From positions 3,140 to 67,139 of the IMG/VR virus record IMGVR_UViG_3300022226_000005: a stretch of DNA of 64,000 nucleotides; one strand, written 5' to 3'. This document shows, piece after piece, positions 10,946 to 22,103 of the stretch. Source of the DNA: a virus. The notes beneath the pieces are model-generated. The model was not told the DNA's origin and made no database searches. It saw only the letters and a program-made list of their open reading frames with translations. The first letter of the stretch is position 1, and each line of letters starts with the position of its first letter. A program made the position numbers and the translations under genes.

Positions 10946-11194
10946 ATGAGTACAGCCGTGACAAACGATGAAATTGCCAAGCAGTTGGAGAAGCACGACC
11001 AACACTTGACTCGCCTGACGGACACAGTCGACAGGATTGAGAAAGACATAGAGCCGATTACGCTTGTCTACATGGACATAGCTGCGGTCGGGCGCGTAGG
11101 CCGTAAGATAGGCAACTTCATTAAGTGGTTTGCCGCCGTATCACTAGCTTTTACAGGCGCGTGGGCTGCCGTTAAGGGGTTTCGACCGTGGTAA
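10946..11194 (+). CDS. Coiled-coil membrane protein, possibly holin-like
   Basis: N-terminal coiled coil plus one C-terminal hydrophobic helix. Confidence 0.5.
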   Translation: MSTAVTNDEIAKQLEKHDQHLTRLTDTVDRIEKDIEPITLVYMDIAAVGRVGRKIGNFIKWFAAVSLAFTGAWAAVKGFRPW

Positions 11195-11475
11195 AAGTAT
11201 TGTTTATAGCGCTGGCGTTGTTTGTAACTTCTGCGCATGCTGAATATAGCGTTAAATACCTCGAACACGCCATGTTTATGACGGTGACGGACGGGCAAAA
11301 ACTCGGCAGGCTTATTTGTTTAGATAACAAAACAGAAGATAAGTCCGCACTCCCCGTAGGGTGGCGAATTTTAACCTGCAACAACTTGCATACGCCTTTA
11401 AATTGGGCGATTTGTTACGTAAACATAGAAAAGAAATCTTTTTTGTGTGGTAAATACACCCCCGTTGGGAACTAG
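11188..11475 (+). CDS. Small secreted protein with four Cys
   Basis: Signal peptide ending AHA; AT-richer than flanks. Confidence 0.6.
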   Translation: MVKVLFIALALFVTSAHAEYSVKYLEHAMFMTVTDGQKLGRLICLDNKTEDKSALPVGWRILTCNNLHTPLNWAICYVNIEKKSFLCGKYTPVGN

Positions 11476-11488
11476 GAGAAACATTTAA

Positions 11489-13924
11489 ATGGCGCTTATT
11501 ACCGATCCCGATAGCCTGAGTCAAGGTACCCTATACGCGGTAACCAACCTCGTTATCACAACTCCCGGCACCGGGGCAGACTCCACGTTTGCCGGAACGG
11601 GTCTCGGCTCGTTGCTGGCAGGTGATTTTTTCGAGATTCGGGATCACTCTGATCCGCTGGCCAACGGCTTGTGGCGAGTAGTTACCGTTAACGGCGACAC
11701 CACCAGCTACGAGGTCGACAAAATTTCAAACGGCGCGGTACCGGCAACCGCTGGTTCCGAGGCAGTCAGTTGGCTCGGTGGCGACGCCACTGTCGCCGAT
11801 GAAAAATCCGTGTACTTCGACACGCTGGTCGAGGAAATCTGGCTCCTAGAGCAAGGCAACCTGTCAGTAGACGGCGTGACCATGCTGGCGCTCCACTCGT
11901 TCATCAAGAAGCGCTGGAAAGACGATCAGCTGCTCATCGACTCTGGTGCCTTCCCGATGGTTGGTATCTCGTTCGCCGCTGGTCAGTGGGAATTCGGCGA
12001 AGACCCGTCGGGTAACAACTCTGACTGGACACTCAAAGTTGACGTGGCCTCCAGCGTTGACTCTCAGCGGCTGATCCGTAACGCGGGCTGGAACCAAAAG
12101 AACAACGCTGGTGTTATCATCGCGAAGTTCTTCAACGTCTCGACTCTTGGTACGTTCGAAGATACAGCCGACCAAGCGAAGTATTTCTTCGGTAATGACT
12201 ACACCACCGACAACACGAACAACTTTGCGTTCACCGGCCCTGTAAACGAGCCGGTCCAATACTTCGACCTGATCGGCGACCTAGCTGGTGACACCCCGTC
12301 GTTCGCTTCCACTACCACGGTTACTCGTGCGACTGGCAGCTTCATCACCGACGGCTTCGTCGTTGGCGGTCAGATCACTGTATCTGGCTCTACCAGCAAC
12401 GACGGCACTTACGCGCTGTCCGCCGTGTCCGCCACCAGCATGACCATCACTACTACGTGGACAGCTGAAGCGTGGGGCACTACTCAGATCGCCGTAGACA
12501 ACGCCAACGCCGTAGCGGTGCAGCTCCGTATTCGTGACGCTGACCCCAAAGGTAAGACCTTCCAGACTTCTGGCCTGACGCAAGCTGGTGAAGACGCGAT
12601 TGCGTCCAAAGTTATCAAATTCCCGCTCGCCAACGGCGCTGACCAAAAGATCGACGTCACCGACGCCAACGTTGTTACCGCCCCCTGGACTGAAGTTCGT
12701 CCTCGGTACCTCGCCACTACGTACAACCGCGATGTTGATACCCTCGGCGTACCCCGTAACTTCGGCATCGTTATCGATGCTGGCACGTACTCCCAGAGCA
12801 ACGGCGCGGCGGCTACTACTTCCCGCTGGGACTCTGCGAACCTCAACCTTGGCACCGGCGAAGCACTTGCTGACTACACTGGCGGTACGCTGATCATCCA
12901 CGAAGGCACGAACAAGGGCAGCTATACCATCTCCGGTACCCCGGTAGATTCGGCTGGCACCTTGCAGGTGACCGTCGTAGGTACGCCTCTGACTGTTACC
13001 GGCTCGAACGAGTCGTTCACGGTACAACGTGCGACGCCTCTTGGCGTAAGTGCACAGAACATCTTTGAGCGCATCCAGTATTTGCTGCGCCAAGGCACCG
13101 ACATCAACGACAGCGCGGACGGCGCAGTTGTCGGCCAGATGACTGGCGAACTGGCGGCTTACGTTGGTGACAACATCACTTTTGGCGGTTTCGAGTCAGT
13201 CAACCCGAATGGTGGTGGCGCAGGCGTTATTGTCGAGGGCTTCGATGCCAATGACACCAACAACATGTTCTTCGTCGACAACCTCGGCGTTGCAACCGGT
13301 ACCCGCAACTTCCCGTTCGTCGCCGCAGGCACACTTAACTTTAACTCTAACCTGACGGGCGATACTGACCCGGAATACTGGCTGTATTACCAGTATACTC
13401 AGCGCGTTACTAACGCGACCATCGATTGTATTGGCAACTCCGGTAGCACGTACGACCTTGAGTCCGACGCTGCGGTTCTCCCTGTGTTTGGGGTCAACGA
13501 CTATGTGCGCATCTCTGGGTTCGCGCAAGCGGCGAACAACGGCTTGTTCCGCGTCACCGTGGTCAACGTCTCCCAGTCTGACTACACGGTTGTCCGCGTT
13601 GACGGCGAGCCGGTCGGCACTACTGAGTCCAACCAGACCGTTAGCGTTGACAAGAACCCCTACAACTCGCCCGACGCGATTATCGTTAATGACAACAGCG
13701 GCTCGCCGATTACTGGCGCTATTGGCGCGGCTTCTATTGCTTTTGACTACGATTACGATAATAATGCACAAGGCGGAAGAGCGACTGAGACAGCCGTGTG
13801 CGTGCTAAAAGCTAGCGGCCTGGAGCTCGGCCAGTACGTCGAGGTTTTAAACCAGCAAATCACTCGCAACACCGGTTTGTCATTCACAGCTACCTCGCCG
13901 TTGGAACGTAACTTTACTCCGTAA
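11489..13924 (+). CDS. Large beta-rich structural protein with repeated small beta modules
   Basis: 811 aa, Thr/Gly/Asn/Asp-rich, four G-D/G-x-I/V-x-I..NG.Y/W/F.V modules. Confidence 0.6.
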   Translation: MALITDPDSLSQGTLYAVTNLVITTPGTGADSTFAGTGLGSLLAGDFFEIRDHSDPLANGLWRVVTVNGDTTSYEVDKISNGAVPATAGSEAVSWLGGDATVADEKSVYFDTLVEEIWLLEQGNLSVDGVTMLALHSFIKKRWKDDQLLIDSGAFPMVGISFAAGQWEFGEDPSGNNSDWTLKVDVASSVDSQRLIRNAGWNQKNNAGVIIAKFFNVSTLGTFEDTADQAKYFFGNDYTTDNTNNFAFTGPVNEPVQYFDLIGDLAGDTPSFASTTTVTRATGSFITDGFVVGGQITVSGSTSNDGTYALSAVSATSMTITTTWTAEAWGTTQIAVDNANAVAVQLRIRDADPKGKTFQTSGLTQAGEDAIASKVIKFPLANGADQKIDVTDANVVTAPWTEVRPRYLATTYNRDVDTLGVPRNFGIVIDAGTYSQSNGAAATTSRWDSANLNLGTGEALADYTGGTLIIHEGTNKGSYTISGTPVDSAGTLQVTVVGTPLTVTGSNESFTVQRATPLGVSAQNIFERIQYLLRQGTDINDSADGAVVGQMTGELAAYVGDNITFGGFESVNPNGGGAGVIVEGFDANDTNNMFFVDNLGVATGTRNFPFVAAGTLNFNSNLTGDTDPEYWLYYQYTQRVTNATIDCIGNSGSTYDLESDAAVLPVFGVNDYVRISGFAQAANNGLFRVTVVNVSQSDYTVVRVDGEPVGTTESNQTVSVDKNPYNSPDAIIVNDNSGSPITGAIGAASIAFDYDYDNNAQGGRATETAVCVLKASGLELGQYVEVLNQQITRNTGLSFTATSPLERNFTP

Positions 13925-13933
13925 TGAGGTACT

Positions 13934-14167
13934 ATGATCGACATCATTGTGAAAACTCCGGAGGGTTACACTCTCCGGAATCCCATCTGGAAGGTCCGTT
14001 CCGACAGTGACTTTGCGTTCGTTGATCTTCTTCGTGAGGTCTGCCAAAAGATAGAGGTAGACCCCCGCGAGTTCAAGGTGCAGCTCGATGGTGCCGACAT
14101 GCAGAATGGGGCACTTTGTCTTAACTTTCTTGACCAAGGCGATACCGTGGAGCTGGTAGAGCGGTAA
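13934..14167 (+). CDS. Ubiquitin-like (beta-grasp) protein without C-terminal GG
   Basis: 77 aa; MIDIIVKTPEG...GDTVELVER follows the ubiquitin secondary-structure pattern; GAGG SD present. Confidence 0.55.
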   Translation: MIDIIVKTPEGYTLRNPIWKVRSDSDFAFVDLLREVCQKIEVDPREFKVQLDGADMQNGALCLNFLDQGDTVELVER

Positions 14168-15726
14168 TGGCTGCTGCAACTTATACATCTGATCTAACAG
14201 ACATCACCCTGTTCGAAAGCACTACAGGCGTCTCCAACTATGGTGGTGGCGGCGGCGCGGCTGCGGCGGGCATTGACTATGCTATAGAAGGCACGAACTG
14301 TGTCGATAAGCAGGTCAACGCGACAGAGCGCGGGTTCCTGTTCCAAGCGGGGGCCAGCTTCACGATAGGAGCAGACGACCACTTCTACGAGTGGGTGTGT
14401 GTCGGAACCTATGGCCTTGCGGCTACTCGTAACAACCGTGGCATCTGCGTGGCTATTGGCGACGACGTCAGCAACTTCGTGCAGTTCCACGTCAACGGGG
14501 TTGACACGCTCCCGCTCGGCGGTATGATCCCCTACGCTGTCAGGTTCAACAACACTTCGGCGACTAACCTTCGCACGCTTGTCGGCTCTCCTGGTACCTC
14601 TCCGGACAGCATTGGTTGTACGGCTAATATAACGGGCTCAGCAAAATTCGCTAACTTGGCCGCTGATGCTTGCCGCATAGGAACTGGATACGACATACTA
14701 AACGGTACTGGCGCAGACCCCGAGGCGGACTTCGCTGGGATAGCTGCGGATGACCTCTCGACTAGAGAAGGCGTGTTGGTCGCGGTCGGCGGCGGCTATA
14801 ACCTACAGGGCAAACTGCGGATAGGTAGCGCGACCACCGCCTGTGAATTCCTGGATAGCAACACCAACATCAACATAGTTGATACCATACACTCTCTGAC
14901 GGACTTCACGGAAATACTGGTGGAGAACGCGTCGAGTATTCTCACCCTTACCAACATCAACTTCCAAGCACTGGGAACAAATAACCCCGGCCGCATCGAG
15001 ATGATTACGGCCACCGCCACCGCTACTCTCACAAACGTGGGTTTCATCGGCTTCGGCGTTTCTGTTTTTGGTTCAGGCACTACTGCTGCGAACTGTCGCT
15101 GGATCGGAGCAAACCAGGTAACGGTGGGCAACGGCACCTACACTGGTTGTGCTTTTGATTCAAGCATAGCGGCCTCAGCCGTACTCGCAGCAAGCCCCGC
15201 CGAAGCCGCTAAGATATCTGGAAGTACTTTCACCAGTGCTGGCACAGGCAACGGCTTGGAGATTACCGGTACTGCTGCTGACTTCACTCTCACAGATGTG
15301 GACTTCAGCGGGTACTCCACCACTGTCGACGCTAACAAGGCGATCTACGTGAACATAGCTTCTGGTACCGTAAACATCACTATCAGCGGAGGCAGCGGCG
15401 TCACCGCCGCCTCGCATGTAAGGACCGCTGGCGCTACTATAGTGGTCAACTCAGACGTGACCGTCACGTTTACAAACATGAAAGATAATACAGAAGTAAG
15501 GATATACACAGCTGGCACGAAAACGGAGTTGGCGGGCATAGAGAACGCCACGGCGGGTACCGCCAACGCGCGCACTTTTGCTGCCGCTATACCGGGCGGA
15601 ACAAACGTGGATTACACGATGGTTAACGAGCAATACGAGATCGTGCGAGTAGAGTCCTTCACGTGGCCTACTGCCGACCAAAGTATCCTTATTAGTCAAC
15701 GCTTCGACCGCAACTTTGTACCTTAA
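14167..15726 (+). CDS. Structural protein with probable beta-helix
   Basis: Short-period beta repeats rich in Thr/Asn/Gly/Ile; in the late operon. Confidence 0.55.
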   Translation: MAAATYTSDLTDITLFESTTGVSNYGGGGGAAAAGIDYAIEGTNCVDKQVNATERGFLFQAGASFTIGADDHFYEWVCVGTYGLAATRNNRGICVAIGDDVSNFVQFHVNGVDTLPLGGMIPYAVRFNNTSATNLRTLVGSPGTSPDSIGCTANITGSAKFANLAADACRIGTGYDILNGTGADPEADFAGIAADDLSTREGVLVAVGGGYNLQGKLRIGSATTACEFLDSNTNINIVDTIHSLTDFTEILVENASSILTLTNINFQALGTNNPGRIEMITATATATLTNVGFIGFGVSVFGSGTTAANCRWIGANQVTVGNGTYTGCAFDSSIAASAVLAASPAEAAKISGSTFTSAGTGNGLEITGTAADFTLTDVDFSGYSTTVDANKAIYVNIASGTVNITISGGSGVTAASHVRTAGATIVVNSDVTVTFTNMKDNTEVRIYTAGTKTELAGIENATAGTANARTFAAAIPGGTNVDYTMVNEQYEIVRVESFTWPTADQSILISQRFDRNFVP

Positions 15727-15737
15727 GGGGCCTGACG

Positions 15738-16979
15738 ATGGCAGTCACTTTCGATGGCCCTAACTTAATAATCACGCTTGAAACAGGCGTAACCTCTCTC
15801 GACTGGGGCGACGTCTACTCGGATTGGAAGCGGTGGGTTAACGATGGCGGTGGCGACCCATACGCTCCCGCGTTTCGCGTAGTAGGCGGCGACCCTTTGT
15901 CGGCGGTAATCAACGCCGGTACTTACTACTTCCTACGTAACGACCTCGGCTGGCGCATCAAACCGCCTGAGGAAGACATCACTGTCTTTGTGACAGGTAA
16001 CCTTGCACTTCAAGACTTGAACGTGCCATCGATCCTGCCAACAACCGGCGCGTTTACTGCTGCGGTACTCGGCCTCCAGCCTGTAACGCAGGGCGTTATA
16101 CCAGAGATGCGCGACAACCTGCGTTTTGCGATTTATCAGAACGCAGTGTGGGTTGACCAAAGCAGCCCGTACTCCGGAACGGCGTTCCCCGTTGGCTCGC
16201 CGAGAGCCCGTGTTAACAACGTCGCTGATGCCAAACTTATTGCTGCTGCTAACGGGTTTACTACACTCGACTTCCTAGGCACATACAACTTCTCTGGTAG
16301 CGACAACGTCGACGACTTCACGCTGAGAGGCGAGGGTGGGGGAGCCTCTACGCTGGTTTTTTCAGCTGGGGATTCGACGGACGGGGCCCGTTTTTACGAT
16401 GCCGAGCTCCAAGGGGATATGTCCGGGGCAATCGAAGCGACGAACTGCCACGTTGCAGGGGTATCTGATGTTGGCGGGAGCGTGCATGAAACGGAGTTTA
16501 AGGGGTGCCTTCTCGGGCCCGGCTCATCTGTCGCCCTTTCCGCAGCGGCGACCGAAGACGTCCACTTCCGTCGTTGCGACAGCGGTTCGCCGGGAGACAC
16601 CGCGGTTATTTATGACTGGAACGGGGCGGCTGCGGGCGGCACCTTCCGTAACTACGGTGGCGGAATCAGGCTGGAAAACCTGACTAATGCTAATGAAATT
16701 TCAATCGACGGCGACTGCCACGTAACAATCGCGGCGAGCTGCACCAGTTGTAACATAGCAATACGGGGGGACGTGAAGGTTACGAACCTTGCTAGCGCGA
16801 ATCCAGGTGTGGTGGTGATCGACCAAGCGATGTACACCAGGATGTTCGAAGTGTGGCAGCGCCTTGGCCTTGACCCGAATAACCCCCTCACTAACCAGAA
16901 CGACGGCGGGTACACTGTTGGCGACATAGACGTCAACGCGACTGCCGTCGGCGACGACATTATACAGACAAGACAATGA
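15738..16979 (+). CDS. Structural protein with probable beta-helical C-terminal part
   Basis: 413 aa, beta-rich repeats, in the late operon. Confidence 0.55.
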   Translation: MAVTFDGPNLIITLETGVTSLDWGDVYSDWKRWVNDGGGDPYAPAFRVVGGDPLSAVINAGTYYFLRNDLGWRIKPPEEDITVFVTGNLALQDLNVPSILPTTGAFTAAVLGLQPVTQGVIPEMRDNLRFAIYQNAVWVDQSSPYSGTAFPVGSPRARVNNVADAKLIAAANGFTTLDFLGTYNFSGSDNVDDFTLRGEGGGASTLVFSAGDSTDGARFYDAELQGDMSGAIEATNCHVAGVSDVGGSVHETEFKGCLLGPGSSVALSAAATEDVHFRRCDSGSPGDTAVIYDWNGAAAGGTFRNYGGGIRLENLTNANEISIDGDCHVTIAASCTSCNIAIRGDVKVTNLASANPGVVVIDQAMYTRMFEVWQRLGLDPNNPLTNQNDGGYTVGDIDVNATAVGDDIIQTRQ

Positions 16980-17197
16980 GCGCTCTCAGCCTCGCGTCTT
17001 TAGGTGTAATATGTAACGCAAGATCGTTTTCTATGGCGAGCTTGGGCGTGTTCTGCCTCGCTGATGAAGCGGCAGTTGTTGTGCCGATACTTAGCGCGGG
17101 CGGGGCAGGCTACACACACGAGATAGATGAAAGGGACGTTTTGGATATTGTATCACTTTTAATTGCATCAGGAGTACTTGACGATGGCAAGCCTTAA
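16976..17197 (+). CDS. Small hypothetical protein
   Basis: ATGA overlap; internal repeat SLASLGV / SMASLGV. Confidence 0.55.
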   Translation: MSALSLASLGVICNARSFSMASLGVFCLADEAAVVVPILSAGGAGYTHEIDERDVLDIVSLLIASGVLDDGKP

Positions 17198-20100
17198 GTC
17201 TTGTTTAGCAAAGGTCAAGAAAGCTGGCTATGACACCAGCGCGTTGCCCCTGCGCGAGTTAGAGGCGTCGAGCGACCCTGTATACGTCATAGAGTCTGAG
17301 CTCAAAGCACTGCGCACTTCGCACGCAGAACTTTTCACTACGCGCGAACGACTGATGGAACAGCTGCGTCAGTTCTCTCCCGAGATGAACGAAGCTATTC
17401 AGGAGCACATCGATGAAGAAATCGCGATTAACGCGCCGAGGCCCGCCGATCCCTCCGTTGGGCCCGAAGCTCCATCAGCTGGACTTCGCAGCGGGCTGGC
17501 CGCAACGGCTCCTTCTGGCCTCCCTACACAGCGCCAGAAGCAGGCTCCTAAGCCCCTCAAAAACCTTGAAGCAGCCGCTGAGAAAAAGAAAGCCACGGTT
17601 GGAGAAGAAGAGGCGGCTAAAGTTAGCAAAGTTATGGCGGTCCTACGTAGAGCTCAGCGGGATGGCAAGGAGTACCACGAACTAAGTGCTTCGTACGCAG
17701 TGCGAAAGGCTACGGCTGCGGGCAAGATGAAAGAGATTCGGGCTATGTTTCCCGAAGAGACCTCGAACATTGCGGCTATGAAGAAATTTCAGCAGGTCGC
17801 TAAAAACCAAGTATCTACGGAGTCAAAAGATGAGGCACCAGTATTTAACAAGCGCCAGCAGAAACAGCTCGGTGCATACAACGAAGAGCTTATCGCACAA
17901 AGAAGCGATGAAGTGGCACCTCGTGGAGAAAAGCCGTCGAGCGATACTTCGCAGCTTGAGGGGGTCACCGAGCAGGAGCCAAAGGCAGTCGAGGTTAAAA
18001 TCGAGCCTTACGTTACTCAGAAAGGCAGCCGTGCAGAGCTGCCTGGTGTCGTGGGCCTTGCCCGACGCATCAAAAACCTCATCCCCGGAGCAACAATGTT
18101 CCGAGAGAGCGCAGGCGGAGGGCTAAGTACCTATGTTATCAAAGTCGATAATGCGGAGCAGGGCGCTTACGACGGGACACCGCAAGAACTTGCCTCGGCG
18201 TTGCTCAAAGTCTTCGAGGACGGCCGTAGGCTTAATCCAAATAAGCCTGAGAACAAGGGTAAGATCCTTGTACTGTATGACAAAAGCGGAGAAAAAGTAC
18301 CTGTTGGGACTATAAGCGTCACGAAACTAGGTGCGGTCGTTGACCAGACGACGAACGACGCCAACATGGCCCCCATCGAGAGGTCAGGTAAACAGTTCAA
18401 TGCGGGGCTTGCGTACCTGATGGCCGAGGGTGGGCTGACTCTACAGAAGACGGAGCCGAAAGTACCCAGCCCGCTCGACAACAAGTTCGTGAAAAAAGCG
18501 TGGGGTAAAATCCACCCGTGGGTCCGTAAGGTTATCGGCAGTCCTGCTTATATGTCGCCGGGTGAGATCGAGACGGCGATAAAAGATCACGGCCTCGTGC
18601 CCCTGGGTTTGGCGCGTTTCACCACGAACCAAATACTGCTTAATGCGGAGAGGATGAAGGCCGCTACGGAGCAGAAGCAAGAGGTAGTCATTTACCACGA
18701 AGCTGGACATATCGCGGACGGCGAGCTAAGCTATCGCCCACAGCAAGAGTGGTTGACCAACGATATGTTGGTGCGGTACTACAACGCCGGGAGAAACCCG
18801 AAAGACCCGTTGTTCGGGTTGTTTGAAATGATATTCTCGGACAAGAGCAAGTACCCCGAGACCGCGTGGCGTAAAGAGGTTATAGCCCAGCTTCACGTGG
18901 GTTATCATCTTATCCCTAATCAACTGAAAGCGTCCAGCCCTGAGGGCTACGCGCTGGTGGAGAGAATCAATGACGAGCTACAGCTCAAATCAGAATTTAT
19001 CGAAAGGGCAGAAGCGGAGCGCCGCGAAACAAGTGTTCCTGGAGGACGTCGAAGTGCTGGGCAAAGCGAAGGCGTTGCGGTATCGCAAGAAAAAGCAAAA
19101 GGAAGCACAGGCGCTCTTAGCAATGAAGCGGTAATAGACACCCGTGGAACGACAGTTGCTCAAGCCTCGCAGTACATCTCAACGCGGACGAAAGCCACTT
19201 CGGACTTTGACCCGACGGACATTGAGGAAGTTGCAAGCGAGCAAGAAGGCGAGGCCGACGTTAGGCAGTTCGAAACCGACGAGGCGCAGATTGCGCGCTC
19301 GACAGGCCGCGCTACGACTTCTCCGGAACTCGTTGGAGCGTCCATTCAACCGAAATCTCGGAACCCCTCAAATGAGGAAGCGAAGCGTATATTCGATACG
19401 ACAACCCAGCGTAAGGCATTCGGGAAGATTCCGAGCGCCTTTATTGCTGTTACCAATAAACTATTCAGTCAGCTGGGTATCAAGACTAAAGTTCTCGTGG
19501 TTGATCAAGCCGGTGCCAAACAGCTCCTCGCGGAAACTGGCTTGCCCTCGCAGTGGAAGACGAACCTTGAGCAGGTTCTAGCTGACCAGCCTGTAGGGCG
19601 GCTCATGCTCTCCGATAGCAGCAACGCCAACGAGCGTTTTGCCGTCATATACATCGACACCACGAAGTCAGACGCCAAACAGCAGCGTGCGCTACTGCAC
19701 GAGCTCGGTCACGTGGTGCAGCTGGCGAAGTTGGATCAAGCGTCGCCTGAAATTCAGAAGGCGCTACGGGACGCACACGAGCTCTCACGGTCACATCAGG
19801 AATTTGAGGAGTGGTTCGCTGACCAGCTGCTGCATTGGGCGAACTCGAAAAGTGTACCAAAATCGGTACTAGACAGGTTTTTCAAAGACCTGGCGCGTGT
19901 TTTGCGTCGGATTTACGCTAAATTCCGGGGGGCACACCCGACTTATGAGCAATATATGGATAGCCTTGTTGCTGCACAGCAACTCAAAGGCGGCATGCAG
20001 AAGCCCGCGTCCGGGAAATTCCGCAGGGATTGGATTGAGGACATGGCTAATAGCGTGGATTCGCCGTTTCTTGCGCGGCAAGAGCGCTCTTTTTACAACT

Positions 20101-22103
20101 TCGGCGGCGAACCGGCCTCAAGCAGCGCTGGGATATCCCGTAAAGGTCAGAAAATTCTCGACTGGGGTAAAGAAAAGGCCGTAGGAACCCGAGAAGCGAT
20201 AGGGGAAATTCTAAAGCCCGCGCACCAAATCGTCACGCAAACCTCGGACGCGTATTTGCGCGCGAACGGCTTGGCTTGGCTGGCCGATCACTTCCACAAA
20301 CGCGCTGACGTACGCACTTCTCGCGTAGGCCCGACAATAGAAACGGAAATCCGCGTAGAGCTGGGCACATTCGAGCCTGATATGGACAAAGTTATGGCGA
20401 AAATGCCGAAAGGCTCGCGGTTTGGTATGTACGTGGACCGAAATACCCCGGAATACGCGCGGGCAATCGAGGACTTACTCGGCCAGGTTGACAACCCCAA
20501 CCCGCTGGCCAAAGAAATGCGCTCATATTTTGAAAAAATGGAGGCTTGGCTGAAGAAAAACGGGGTGGAGTTCAACAAACGGAAGAACTACTTTCCAATA
20601 ATGCTGGATAAACATCTGTGGATGGCGAACCACGACAAGGTTGTGGCTATCGCTATGGACAAGCTCGGAAAAACCCGCGAGCAGGCGGAGAACCTGTATA
20701 TTTCCGTGGCTAGTGACCCGCAAACTTTGTTCGATATGACGGCGGATTACGACCCGAAGACTACCGCGACGTTTGGTCACGCGAAATCCAGAGAGTTTGG
20801 GCCCAAAGAGCACAAGGCTTTCGCTGAGTTTATTGATACGGACCTCGTCTCGGTTATGAAAAACTACACGCATGCGGCGGTAAAACACGTTGTTGTGCAG
20901 CGCCACTTTGGAAGAATCGGGACTAAGGCGGGGCAGAGCGATCCGCTCATTCACCTGAAAGAGTTGCTTACGCGCGCGTTACTTAACAACGAAATCACTC
21001 CCGAGGTGTATGACCGCGTGTGGAATACAATTATTCCCGGTATGTTTGGGCAGTTGGGGGCAAATATGAACCCAACCCTTCGCAAAATGCAGTCAGGTCT
21101 GGTATTCTTCCAGAATGTCAGACTCCTTGGAACAGCCGTCTTGTCTTCGCTCGTCGATCCCGTACACGTTCTGTACCGATCTGGCACGCTTCGGGGGCAG
21201 TGGACGGCTCTTCGTAAGGCCGTGGGAGACCTTAACGATAGGGAAGCGCAACTGTTCTACCGGACAATTGGCATCATACGGGATGATCTCACGGAGGCAA
21301 TTGTCAATGACCCTACGCATACACAATTTTACTCGCCCGGTATTAGGCGGCTGAATGAAACCTTTTTTCGACTGAACGGGATGCACGCGCTGACTAACCT
21401 CAGCCGTATGTACTCGTTCAGCGTTGGCAAGCAGTACATCCTAGAGATGGCCAAAACGAACAACACCGCGCGGCTTACCGAAATGGGACTTACCCGACAA
21501 GAAGTACTCAACTGGGACAAGCGGGGCCAAACGCTCAGCCTCGACAATGTTGAAGACGCGAATGTGCTGTATGCGCTGCATCAGTTTGTAGACGAGTCAA
21601 TCCTCCGCCCGAGCGCAGCGATGCGACCGGCGTGGATGTCCGATCAGCGATGGTTGCTCGTTGCAAACCTCAAATCATTTATCTTCACGTACCACGAGAC
21701 GATCCTACGTCGTATTTGGAGCCAAGTGCGGACCGGTGAGCTGAAAGACCCGGCTGTGTTGCTTCCGTTCATAGGATTCGCGGCCATAGCCCTGTCTGTC
21801 TCGATGTTCGGCTATGAGACGCGTCGGCAGATCATGAACGCTGGGGATGTCCCTGCGTACGCGAGGGCAGACGCGTGGGACTATCTGTGGGAAGGCTTCC
21901 AGCGCACCGGCGCACTTGGCACGATGCAGTTCCTGGTTGACTCGATTGAGGCCGAGAACCGTGGTAAGATGGCGCTTATGTCCATGCTAGGCCCGACAGC
22001 GTCGCAGTTCGAAATGCTCATGACCAAAGACCTCAGCTATTCGTTGCCGCGATCCTTGCCGATATTCGCCCAGTCGCCTGCCCTCCGTGAATGGATCAGG
22101 TAG
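17184..22103 (+). CDS. Giant internal virion (polyvalent-type) protein with two zincin HExxH motifs
   Basis: 1639 aa from ATG 17184 with CAGGAG SD; IYHEAGH (~18696) and LLHELGH (~19698) followed by EEWFAD. Confidence 0.7.
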   Translation: MASLKSCLAKVKKAGYDTSALPLRELEASSDPVYVIESELKALRTSHAELFTTRERLMEQLRQFSPEMNEAIQEHIDEEIAINAPRPADPSVGPEAPSAGLRSGLAATAPSGLPTQRQKQAPKPLKNLEAAAEKKKATVGEEEAAKVSKVMAVLRRAQRDGKEYHELSASYAVRKATAAGKMKEIRAMFPEETSNIAAMKKFQQVAKNQVSTESKDEAPVFNKRQQKQLGAYNEELIAQRSDEVAPRGEKPSSDTSQLEGVTEQEPKAVEVKIEPYVTQKGSRAELPGVVGLARRIKNLIPGATMFRESAGGGLSTYVIKVDNAEQGAYDGTPQELASALLKVFEDGRRLNPNKPENKGKILVLYDKSGEKVPVGTISVTKLGAVVDQTTNDANMAPIERSGKQFNAGLAYLMAEGGLTLQKTEPKVPSPLDNKFVKKAWGKIHPWVRKVIGSPAYMSPGEIETAIKDHGLVPLGLARFTTNQILLNAERMKAATEQKQEVVIYHEAGHIADGELSYRPQQEWLTNDMLVRYYNAGRNPKDPLFGLFEMIFSDKSKYPETAWRKEVIAQLHVGYHLIPNQLKASSPEGYALVERINDELQLKSEFIERAEAERRETSVPGGRRSAGQSEGVAVSQEKAKGSTGALSNEAVIDTRGTTVAQASQYISTRTKATSDFDPTDIEEVASEQEGEADVRQFETDEAQIARSTGRATTSPELVGASIQPKSRNPSNEEAKRIFDTTTQRKAFGKIPSAFIAVTNKLFSQLGIKTKVLVVDQAGAKQLLAETGLPSQWKTNLEQVLADQPVGRLMLSDSSNANERFAVIYIDTTKSDAKQQRALLHELGHVVQLAKLDQASPEIQKALRDAHELSRSHQEFEEWFADQLLHWANSKSVPKSVLDRFFKDLARVLRRIYAKFRGAHPTYEQYMDSLVAAQQLKGGMQKPASGKFRRDWIEDMANSVDSPFLARQERSFYNFGGEPASSSAGISRKGQKILDWGKEKAVGTREAIGEILKPAHQIVTQTSDAYLRANGLAWLADHFHKRADVRTSRVGPTIETEIRVELGTFEPDMDKVMAKMPKGSRFGMYVDRNTPEYARAIEDLLGQVDNPNPLAKEMRSYFEKMEAWLKKNGVEFNKRKNYFPIMLDKHLWMANHDKVVAIAMDKLGKTREQAENLYISVASDPQTLFDMTADYDPKTTATFGHAKSREFGPKEHKAFAEFIDTDLVSVMKNYTHAAVKHVVVQRHFGRIGTKAGQSDPLIHLKELLTRALLNNEITPEVYDRVWNTIIPGMFGQLGANMNPTLRKMQSGLVFFQNVRLLGTAVLSSLVDPVHVLYRSGTLRGQWTALRKAVGDLNDREAQLFYRTIGIIRDDLTEAIVNDPTHTQFYSPGIRRLNETFFRLNGMHALTNLSRMYSFSVGKQYILEMAKTNNTARLTEMGLTRQEVLNWDKRGQTLSLDNVEDANVLYALHQFVDESILRPSAAMRPAWMSDQRWLLVANLKSFIFTYHETILRRIWSQVRTGELKDPAVLLPFIGFAAIALSVSMFGYETRRQIMNAGDVPAYARADAWDYLWEGFQRTGALGTMQFLVDSIEAENRGKMALMSMLGPTASQFEMLMTKDLSYSLPRSLPIFAQSPALREWIR

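Follow-up and report, generated by a model that had tools for sequence, protein, structure and literature searches.

The window analysed here, a 64,000-nucleotide stretch of the genome of an uncultured phage from sediment, encodes a stand-alone 77-residue protein (13934-14167, + strand) that is predicted to adopt a ubiquitin-like β-grasp fold and that ends in ...VELVER, with no Gly tail. The gene is closely packed between homologues of gp53 and gp54 of cyanophage Syn5, and we tentatively propose that its product is a non-conjugated adaptor for assembly of this horn module. By sequence, the protein falls outside the known ubiquitin-like families and is best treated as a small, new family of its own.

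The 77-residue gene and its predicted fold

The junction upstream of the gene (13922-13936, + strand) is compact. The TAA stop codon of the preceding 811-residue gene (13922-13924) is followed by a GAGG (13926-13929) that lies 4 nt 5′ of the ATG (13934-13936), and the same junction in a sister phage differs at a single base. At the other end, the gene overlaps that of a 519-residue protein in a TAATG stop/start motif (14165-14169, + strand), which suggests translational coupling of the two; in the sister phage, 3 nt separate the 77-residue gene from that of the 519-residue homologue, with no overlap. No promoter or terminator was detectable between the gene and the flanking gp53- and gp54-like genes, with which it would be transcribed together.

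The sister phage (L001, a 75-kb IMG/VR contig) is the second complete phage genome with the gene. Its copy shares 75% nucleotide identity with that in the window, with a dN/dS of 0.14 and 38 of 58 mismatches at third codon positions. Searches of 5.8 billion clustered proteins recovered five clusters, which together with their members yielded seven distinct sequences, 71-100% identical and all exactly 77 residues long. The open reading frame is a real gene under purifying selection, and its 8.9-kDa product is acidic (pI 4.4). An antisense open reading frame (13880-14188, 102 aa) was considered as the coding frame and rejected because the substitutions relative to L001 follow the + strand frame. 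A programmed -1 frameshift fusing the 77-residue to the 519-residue protein was also set aside: the -1 frame does not open until 14134, and no slippery heptamer is seen in that stretch by eye.

An earlier note on this DNA had recognized a ubiquitin-like pattern in the protein, and structure prediction, structural comparison and sub-threshold sequence matches all agree with it. The ESM Atlas model (pLDDT 0.83, pTM 0.77) has structural neighbours in ten clusters among the matches listed, nine of which have ubiquitin-family names or Pfam domains, the tenth being unnamed; the ubiquitin-family neighbours align with TM scores of 0.74-0.83 over 72-75 residues. The note had suggested AlphaFold and Foldseek as a check for a β-grasp, and this prediction too is of a ubiquitin-like β-grasp, although the AlphaFold2 model, built on a shallow alignment of five sequences, is poor (pLDDT 49.8). 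Its secondary structure elements run strand, helix, strand, strand. The Foldseek PDB matches listed for this poor model are to ubiquitin, SUMO, ISG15, NEDD8 or ubiquitin-derived chains (E 0.008-0.07, TM 0.47-0.63). A VIA-align scan of 48,161 chains, independent of Foldseek, placed ubiquitin-superfamily domains (UBX, SUMO, ISG15, PB1 and UBL) at nearly all of the best 50 positions (Z 4.8-6.1), led by the UBX domain 5x3p (Z 6.1). These Z-scores are modest, as one would expect of a model of low confidence.

Comparison of the family profile with PDB sequences yielded sub-threshold matches only, 14 of 17 of them to ubiquitin-like domains and in one consistent register. The best was the parkin Ubl domain (E 0.13), with residues 21-77 aligned onto 15-72, an alignment in which R77 corresponds to ubiquitin R72. 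Alignment to ubiquitin with hhalign, as supporting evidence only, gave the register of the earlier note (P 0.023). Scanning the protein against Pfam, PHROG, NCBIfam and PADLOC models returned no match, and hmmscan reported no ubiquitin family at E ≤ 1. The genome, searched in six frames at E ≤ 10, was likewise negative for PF00240 (ubiquitin) and PF11976 (Rad60-SLD), and for PF06805 (Lambda_tail_I), PF08817 (YukD), PF02597 (ThiS) and PF14454 (Prok_Ub), the last two also in the second complete genome. Two predictors thus give a predicted ubiquitin-like β-grasp for a protein that no family model matches.

The C-terminus, the surface and the conjugation machinery

All seven sequences end in ...V(E/D)(L/V)VER at residue 77, without Gly or Gly-Gly. 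Going by the parkin Ubl alignment, the protein stops at the equivalent of ubiquitin R72, directly before LRGG, as the earlier note had claimed. An end at this position means that the protein lacks the flexible tail, ending in Gly, on which E1 enzymes act by adenylation. The tail has an established role in this step (PMC1949818), and a host E1 is therefore also unlikely to activate a protein with no Gly at its end.

The phage appears equally devoid of its own conjugation enzymes. The statement that E1, E2 and JAB genes are absent from the window could be extended to the whole 68,696-bp record, for which CheckV completeness is 100%. There was no match in this record to the E1 family ThiF (PF00899), to the two E2 families searched, UQ_con (PF00179) and Prok-E2_B (PF14461), or to JAB (PF01398) and Prok-JAB (PF14464). 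ThiF and Prok-JAB were also without a match in the second complete genome. Together with the lack of a terminal Gly, these results uphold the view that the protein is not conjugated by a phage system. Some ESM Atlas look-alikes of the neighbouring 811-residue protein carry an E1_FCCH assignment (13-25% of members, scores <0.9); this was discounted for the 811-residue protein itself, as PF16190 was absent by both hmmscan and six-frame search.

Outside the window, the open frames at the two ends of the 68,696-bp record both match the internal virion protein family phrog_511, that at L009:1887-2696 over profile positions 319-585 and that at L008:3-1025 over positions 534-860. The phrog_511 gene thus seemingly spans the record ends, which fits a circularly permuted, complete genome.

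The equivalents of the Leu8-Ile44-His68-Val70 patch of ubiquitin, read from the weak alignment in the parkin/ubiquitin register, are P9/E10, Q/R50, E/D73 and V75. Conservation lies elsewhere: the β1-β2 hairpin is nearly invariant across the family (17 of 21 residues), whereas β3, the strand that carries Ile44 in ubiquitin, is the least conserved (two of six residues, with Q/R at the Ile44 position). With seven close sequences, this contrast is suggestive only (Fisher p 0.066).

The flanking module and the distribution of the gene

The earlier note had placed the gene inside a structural block. The structural operon stands, and we re-read it as a module like the Syn5 horn/knob genes rather than a tail module. 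Upstream lies the gene for the 811-residue protein (11489-13924, + strand), a homologue of Syn5 gp53 (tblastn E 4e-10) that is 44% identical over its full length to a protein of Rctr197k (tblastn). Downstream is the gene for the 519-residue protein (14167-15726, + strand), whose C-terminus is homologous to Syn5 gp54 (BLASTP E 3e-10); the match runs from its C-terminal 140 residues onto the gp54 C-terminus. The next gene (15738-16979, + strand) encodes a 413-residue protein that is a homologue of Syn5 gp55 over its first ~110 residues (tblastn E 7e-7), and the module is closed by a conserved small open reading frame of 73 residues (16976-17197, + strand), with no family match and 51% identical in the sister phage. 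The gp53-, gp54- and gp55-like genes are in the same order as in Syn5 (NC_009531), where gp53 is annotated as a structural protein. The two horn proteins of Syn5 are reportedly gp53 and gp54 (Raytcheva 2014). Syn5 gp55, for its part, is assigned as a knob-like capsid protein (PMC4102127). A reading of the neighbours as tail spikes or fibres, with the 77-residue protein as a tail-fibre chaperone, was rejected on the grounds that the flanking genes are homologues of Syn5 gp53 and gp54.

The likeness to Syn5 extends to the order of the three genes and stops short of the 77-residue gene itself: in Syn5, only 12 nt separate gp53 from gp54, and there is no ubiquitin-like gene. The proteins here are larger (811 residues against 446 for Syn5 gp53), and the genome that holds the module, about 69 kb long, is that of a KPP25-like podovirus, in which the module may specify a horn-like appendage. 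Kinship with KPP25, a Pseudomonas podovirus, shows in a capsid protein that is 57% identical, and the phage carries an SU10-type adaptor.

The model of the 519-residue protein is of high quality (pLDDT 93.5, 43-sequence alignment) and consists of an N-terminal jelly roll, a right-handed β-helix and a C-terminal β sandwich. Its structural matches include AlgG (Z 17.5) and Geobacillus virus E2 ORF18 (Z 16.4), followed by phage tailspikes and depolymerases (Z 14-15). The modelled β-helix resembles those of polysaccharide enzymes of the alginate epimerase/lyase and depolymerase type. Should the 519-residue protein be part of the horn, this appendage could bind polysaccharide or cut it.

Further genes of the region can be described briefly. 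Two small genes lie 5′ of the module (10946-11475), neither with a family match: one encodes 82 residues with a hydrophobic C-terminal segment (60% identical in the sister phage) and the other 95 residues with a signal-peptide-like N-terminus (55% identical). Beyond the module, a virion protein of 1646 residues (17163-22103) has two HExxH motifs (HEAGH and HELGH) and a weak Peptidase_M78/IrrE-like match (E 2.4e-4), making it a candidate ejected metalloprotease.

The family of the 77-residue protein is tiny, with five clusters on roughly 25 contigs, and its genomic context was read in two carriers, the 68,696-bp record and L001. The family of the 519-residue protein, on the other hand, has at least 329 members in metagenomes; set against five clusters, this means that the 77-residue protein cannot be a core assembly component. 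Among 31 related viral loci with a 519-family gene that were scored, the 77-residue gene was found in L001 only. In the closest outgroup (L010), the gp53-like and gp54-like genes are 9 nt apart with no 77-residue gene between them. The 815-residue L010 protein is 44% identical to the 811-residue protein and the 523-residue one is 61% identical to the 519-residue protein, and the flanking genes keep the same protein ends (...ERNVT and MVAATYTSDL...). The gap without the gene is about 20 nt in Rctr197k. Since the flanking genes are adjacent in L010, Syn5 and Rctr197k, a 243-nt unit of ribosome-binding site and gene was most likely inserted, or else repeatedly lost. We conclude that a contiguous gene pair probably acquired the gene in this narrow clade alone, with repeated loss as the alternative. 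As the pair works without the gene in many other phages, an essential role in assembly is weakened, which leaves an adaptor, a passenger unrelated to the horn and an anti-defence mimic as readings of its function.

Wider searches added nothing to the family. No relatives were found by tblastn of the protein against 50,697 phage records, and scans of metagenome and genome contigs revealed no further ones. A phmmer search of 1.84 billion representative proteins returned its own cluster and two repeat proteins, which score through many short repeats and were dismissed as false positives. Longer or fused forms were not found, which is weak evidence, and no ubiquitin-like domain is hidden in the proteins of the related loci or of the 519-residue family. 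By capsid protein, the closest cultured relative of the phage is KPP25, which lacks a counterpart of the gene.

Between the two complete genomes, the 77-residue protein is 71% identical, to be compared with 81% for the gp53-like protein, 74-76% for the backbone, 37% for the gp54-like and 42% for the gp55-like protein. Its conservation tracks that of the gp53-like protein and the backbone, not that of the fast-evolving gp54-like protein.

What lies at the junction 5′ of 519-family genes varies from lineage to lineage, and the site looks like a hot spot for small accessory genes. Cys-rich proteins of 71 and 83 residues are encoded there in two loci (L014:3789-4004 and L015:3749-4000), proteins of 144-147 residues with a weak CxxCxxCC (PF03692) match in others (L004:5537-5980 and L040:3597-4031; also L041), and related proteins of 106 and 113 residues in two more (L011:3673-3993 and L033:3650-3991). 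A 4.7-kb viral contig (L003:855-4711) encodes a 65%-identical relative of the 519-residue protein, preceded by a 500-residue open reading frame that resembles a large terminase subunit by eye, a 117-residue open reading frame and a 160-residue coiled-coil protein. This context suggests that the gp54-like gene moves between very different genome contexts.

Possible roles and comparison with known systems

The position of the gene between relatives of horn genes makes its product a probable non-covalent binding partner, and if the partner is a horn-module protein, the likeliest candidate, a role in assembling the horn-like appendage would follow. The adaptor that we tentatively favour would be made in step with the horn-module proteins and would bind one of them, the conserved gp53-like (811-residue) protein being the likelier partner. 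It would act non-covalently, as do UBX, UBL and PB1 domains and YukD, most likely through the near-invariant β1-β2 hairpin, given that the canonical Ile44 patch is not conserved, and it may assist, time or decorate the assembly of the appendage in its lineage. The predicted fold, the end at R72, the missing conjugation enzymes, the operon position, the dN/dS value, the conservation and the Syn5-order neighbours all support this role, as does the precedent of YukD and the lambda gpI Ubl domain, non-conjugated ubiquitin-like proteins reported to serve in assembly. Against it count the gene pairs of Syn5, Rctr197k and L010 that lack the gene, its presence in one of 31 loci, and the unrelated genes at the same junction elsewhere.

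Some of these same observations suit a different, more doubtful explanation, in which the gene is unrelated cargo: a lineage-specific accessory gene lodged in a permissive junction of a highly expressed late operon. The target of its product would then be a host or phage protein outside the horn module, for instance in host takeover or the exclusion of other phages. A clade-restricted insertion into an otherwise contiguous gene pair fits such a passenger, as do the unrelated small genes that occupy the slot in other lineages and the very small size of a family with no relatives among 1.84 billion representative proteins. A passenger is harder to reconcile with the lack of a promoter or terminator of its own and the apparent translational coupling to a structural gene, with a ribosome-binding junction kept in both complete genomes, or with conservation equal to that of the structural backbone. 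It is very unlikely that the resemblance to ubiquitin is itself a coincidence, arising from prediction bias on a short β-α-β sequence. The low AlphaFold2 confidence, the failure of every ubiquitin-like Pfam model and sequence matches that are not significant alone would allow for this, but two predictors and three structure aligners agree on ubiquitin-superfamily domains, and most of the best PDB sequence matches point the same way in a single register.

An anti-defence decoy is also unlikely, if somewhat less so. Here a tail-less mimic made late in infection would bind the E1, E2 or deubiquitinase of a Bil/Bub-type defence without being activated itself, or would shield a structural protein from tagging. 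The predicted fold is eukaryote- and ISG15-like, exactly the activation tail is missing, and the gene is an accessory one confined to its clade, a frequent trait of counter-defence genes. Bil is reported to tag a phage structural protein late (10.1101/2023.09.04.556158), which suits a late gene. E1 and E2 enzymes normally take hold of the surface around Ile44 (PMC1949818), however, and the aligned positions here vary and have polar or charged residues (Q/R at 44, E/D at 68). The protein bears no resemblance to PADLOC defence-system models, and a phage inhibitor of Bil is neither mentioned in the Bil paper searched nor found in literature searches. A further difference lies in what is tagged. 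The Bil targets known to us are the central tail fibres of siphophages, not horn proteins, and this mismatch also speaks against a decoy. We consider it quite improbable that a mimic cut before its activation tail, and co-expressed with exposed appendage proteins, serves as a dead-end competitor or shield against Bil/Bub-type immunity.

Comparison with known ubiquitin-like systems places the protein, by analogy, closest to the non-conjugated ubiquitin-like domains and YukD, and it would work most like these. With UBX, UBL and PB1 domains it shares a predicted β-grasp of ~75 residues with no C-terminal Gly-Gly, and non-covalent action would be expected of it. Those domains are parts of larger eukaryotic proteins, whereas the phage protein stands alone and has no Pfam match. 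UBX domains further carry a conserved Arg and, joining strands 3 and 4, a loop with the FPR motif; the β3-β4 loop here reads DGADMQNG, with no FPR. YukD is, like the phage protein, a stand-alone ubiquitin-fold protein of the bacterial world without a conjugation tail. YukD of the Bacillus T7SSb is reported to control the assembly of a large machine (PMC12637312; PMC1949818). The earlier note had drawn this comparison, which holds as an analogy and not as a relationship: PF08817 has no match, the context is not that of a secretion system and shared ancestry is not detectable.

The comparison with lambda gpI made in the same note fared worse. Both are phage proteins with a ubiquitin-like β-grasp, encoded in a virion-assembly operon and outside the classical E1/E2 pathway (PMC1779556), and the Ubl domain of gpI (TAPI) is reported to act as an assembly checkpoint (PMC12908700; PMC1779556). 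In gpI, the Ubl domain ends in a conserved Gly and is followed by a Gly-rich linker and a structural domain at the C-terminus; gpK, encoded next to it, is reported to cleave gpI through its JAB domain (PMC12908700). The 77-residue protein lacks the Gly, the linker and TAPI-C domain and a match to PF06805, and there is no JAB in the genome, let alone next door. gpI is moreover flanked by a gpK-like JAB/NlpC peptidase and by gpJ, whereas the 77-residue gene is flanked by horn genes and has no tail-tip context. BilA and the other conjugated Ubl proteins of bacterial Bil/Bub systems likewise have a ubiquitin/ISG15-like fold and act in a phage-host conflict around phage structural proteins. These proteins have a terminal Gly, and their genes are accompanied by those for E1, E2 and JAB; none of this applies here, and the 77-residue protein matches neither Prok_Ub nor ThiS.

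The phage ubiquitin-like proteins that we found described are processed or conjugated, be it the gpI domain or those encoded in E1/E2/JAB cassettes. The use of the ubiquitin fold as an adaptor is a known theme, so the present case is best filed under it; what is new is the setting in a phage horn module. If the adaptor reading is true, a stand-alone ubiquitin fold that cannot be conjugated, encoded in a virion-appendage operon, would extend the adaptor use familiar from UBX, UBL and YukD to phage particles. If the protein were instead a decoy, it would represent a new class of counter-defence and the first viral decoy ubiquitin-like protein in prokaryotes. At present the gene is a well-defined lead with a putative role. 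Together with its module, it offers a handle on the unexplained horn of Syn5-like phages. The gp53/gp54/gp55-like module is also found in Rctr197k, S-TIP28 and Maribacter phage Panino, as well as in numerous uncultured phages whose backbones differ, and its wide occurrence (at least 329 gp54-like homologues) suggests that horn-like appendages may far exceed the single case described.
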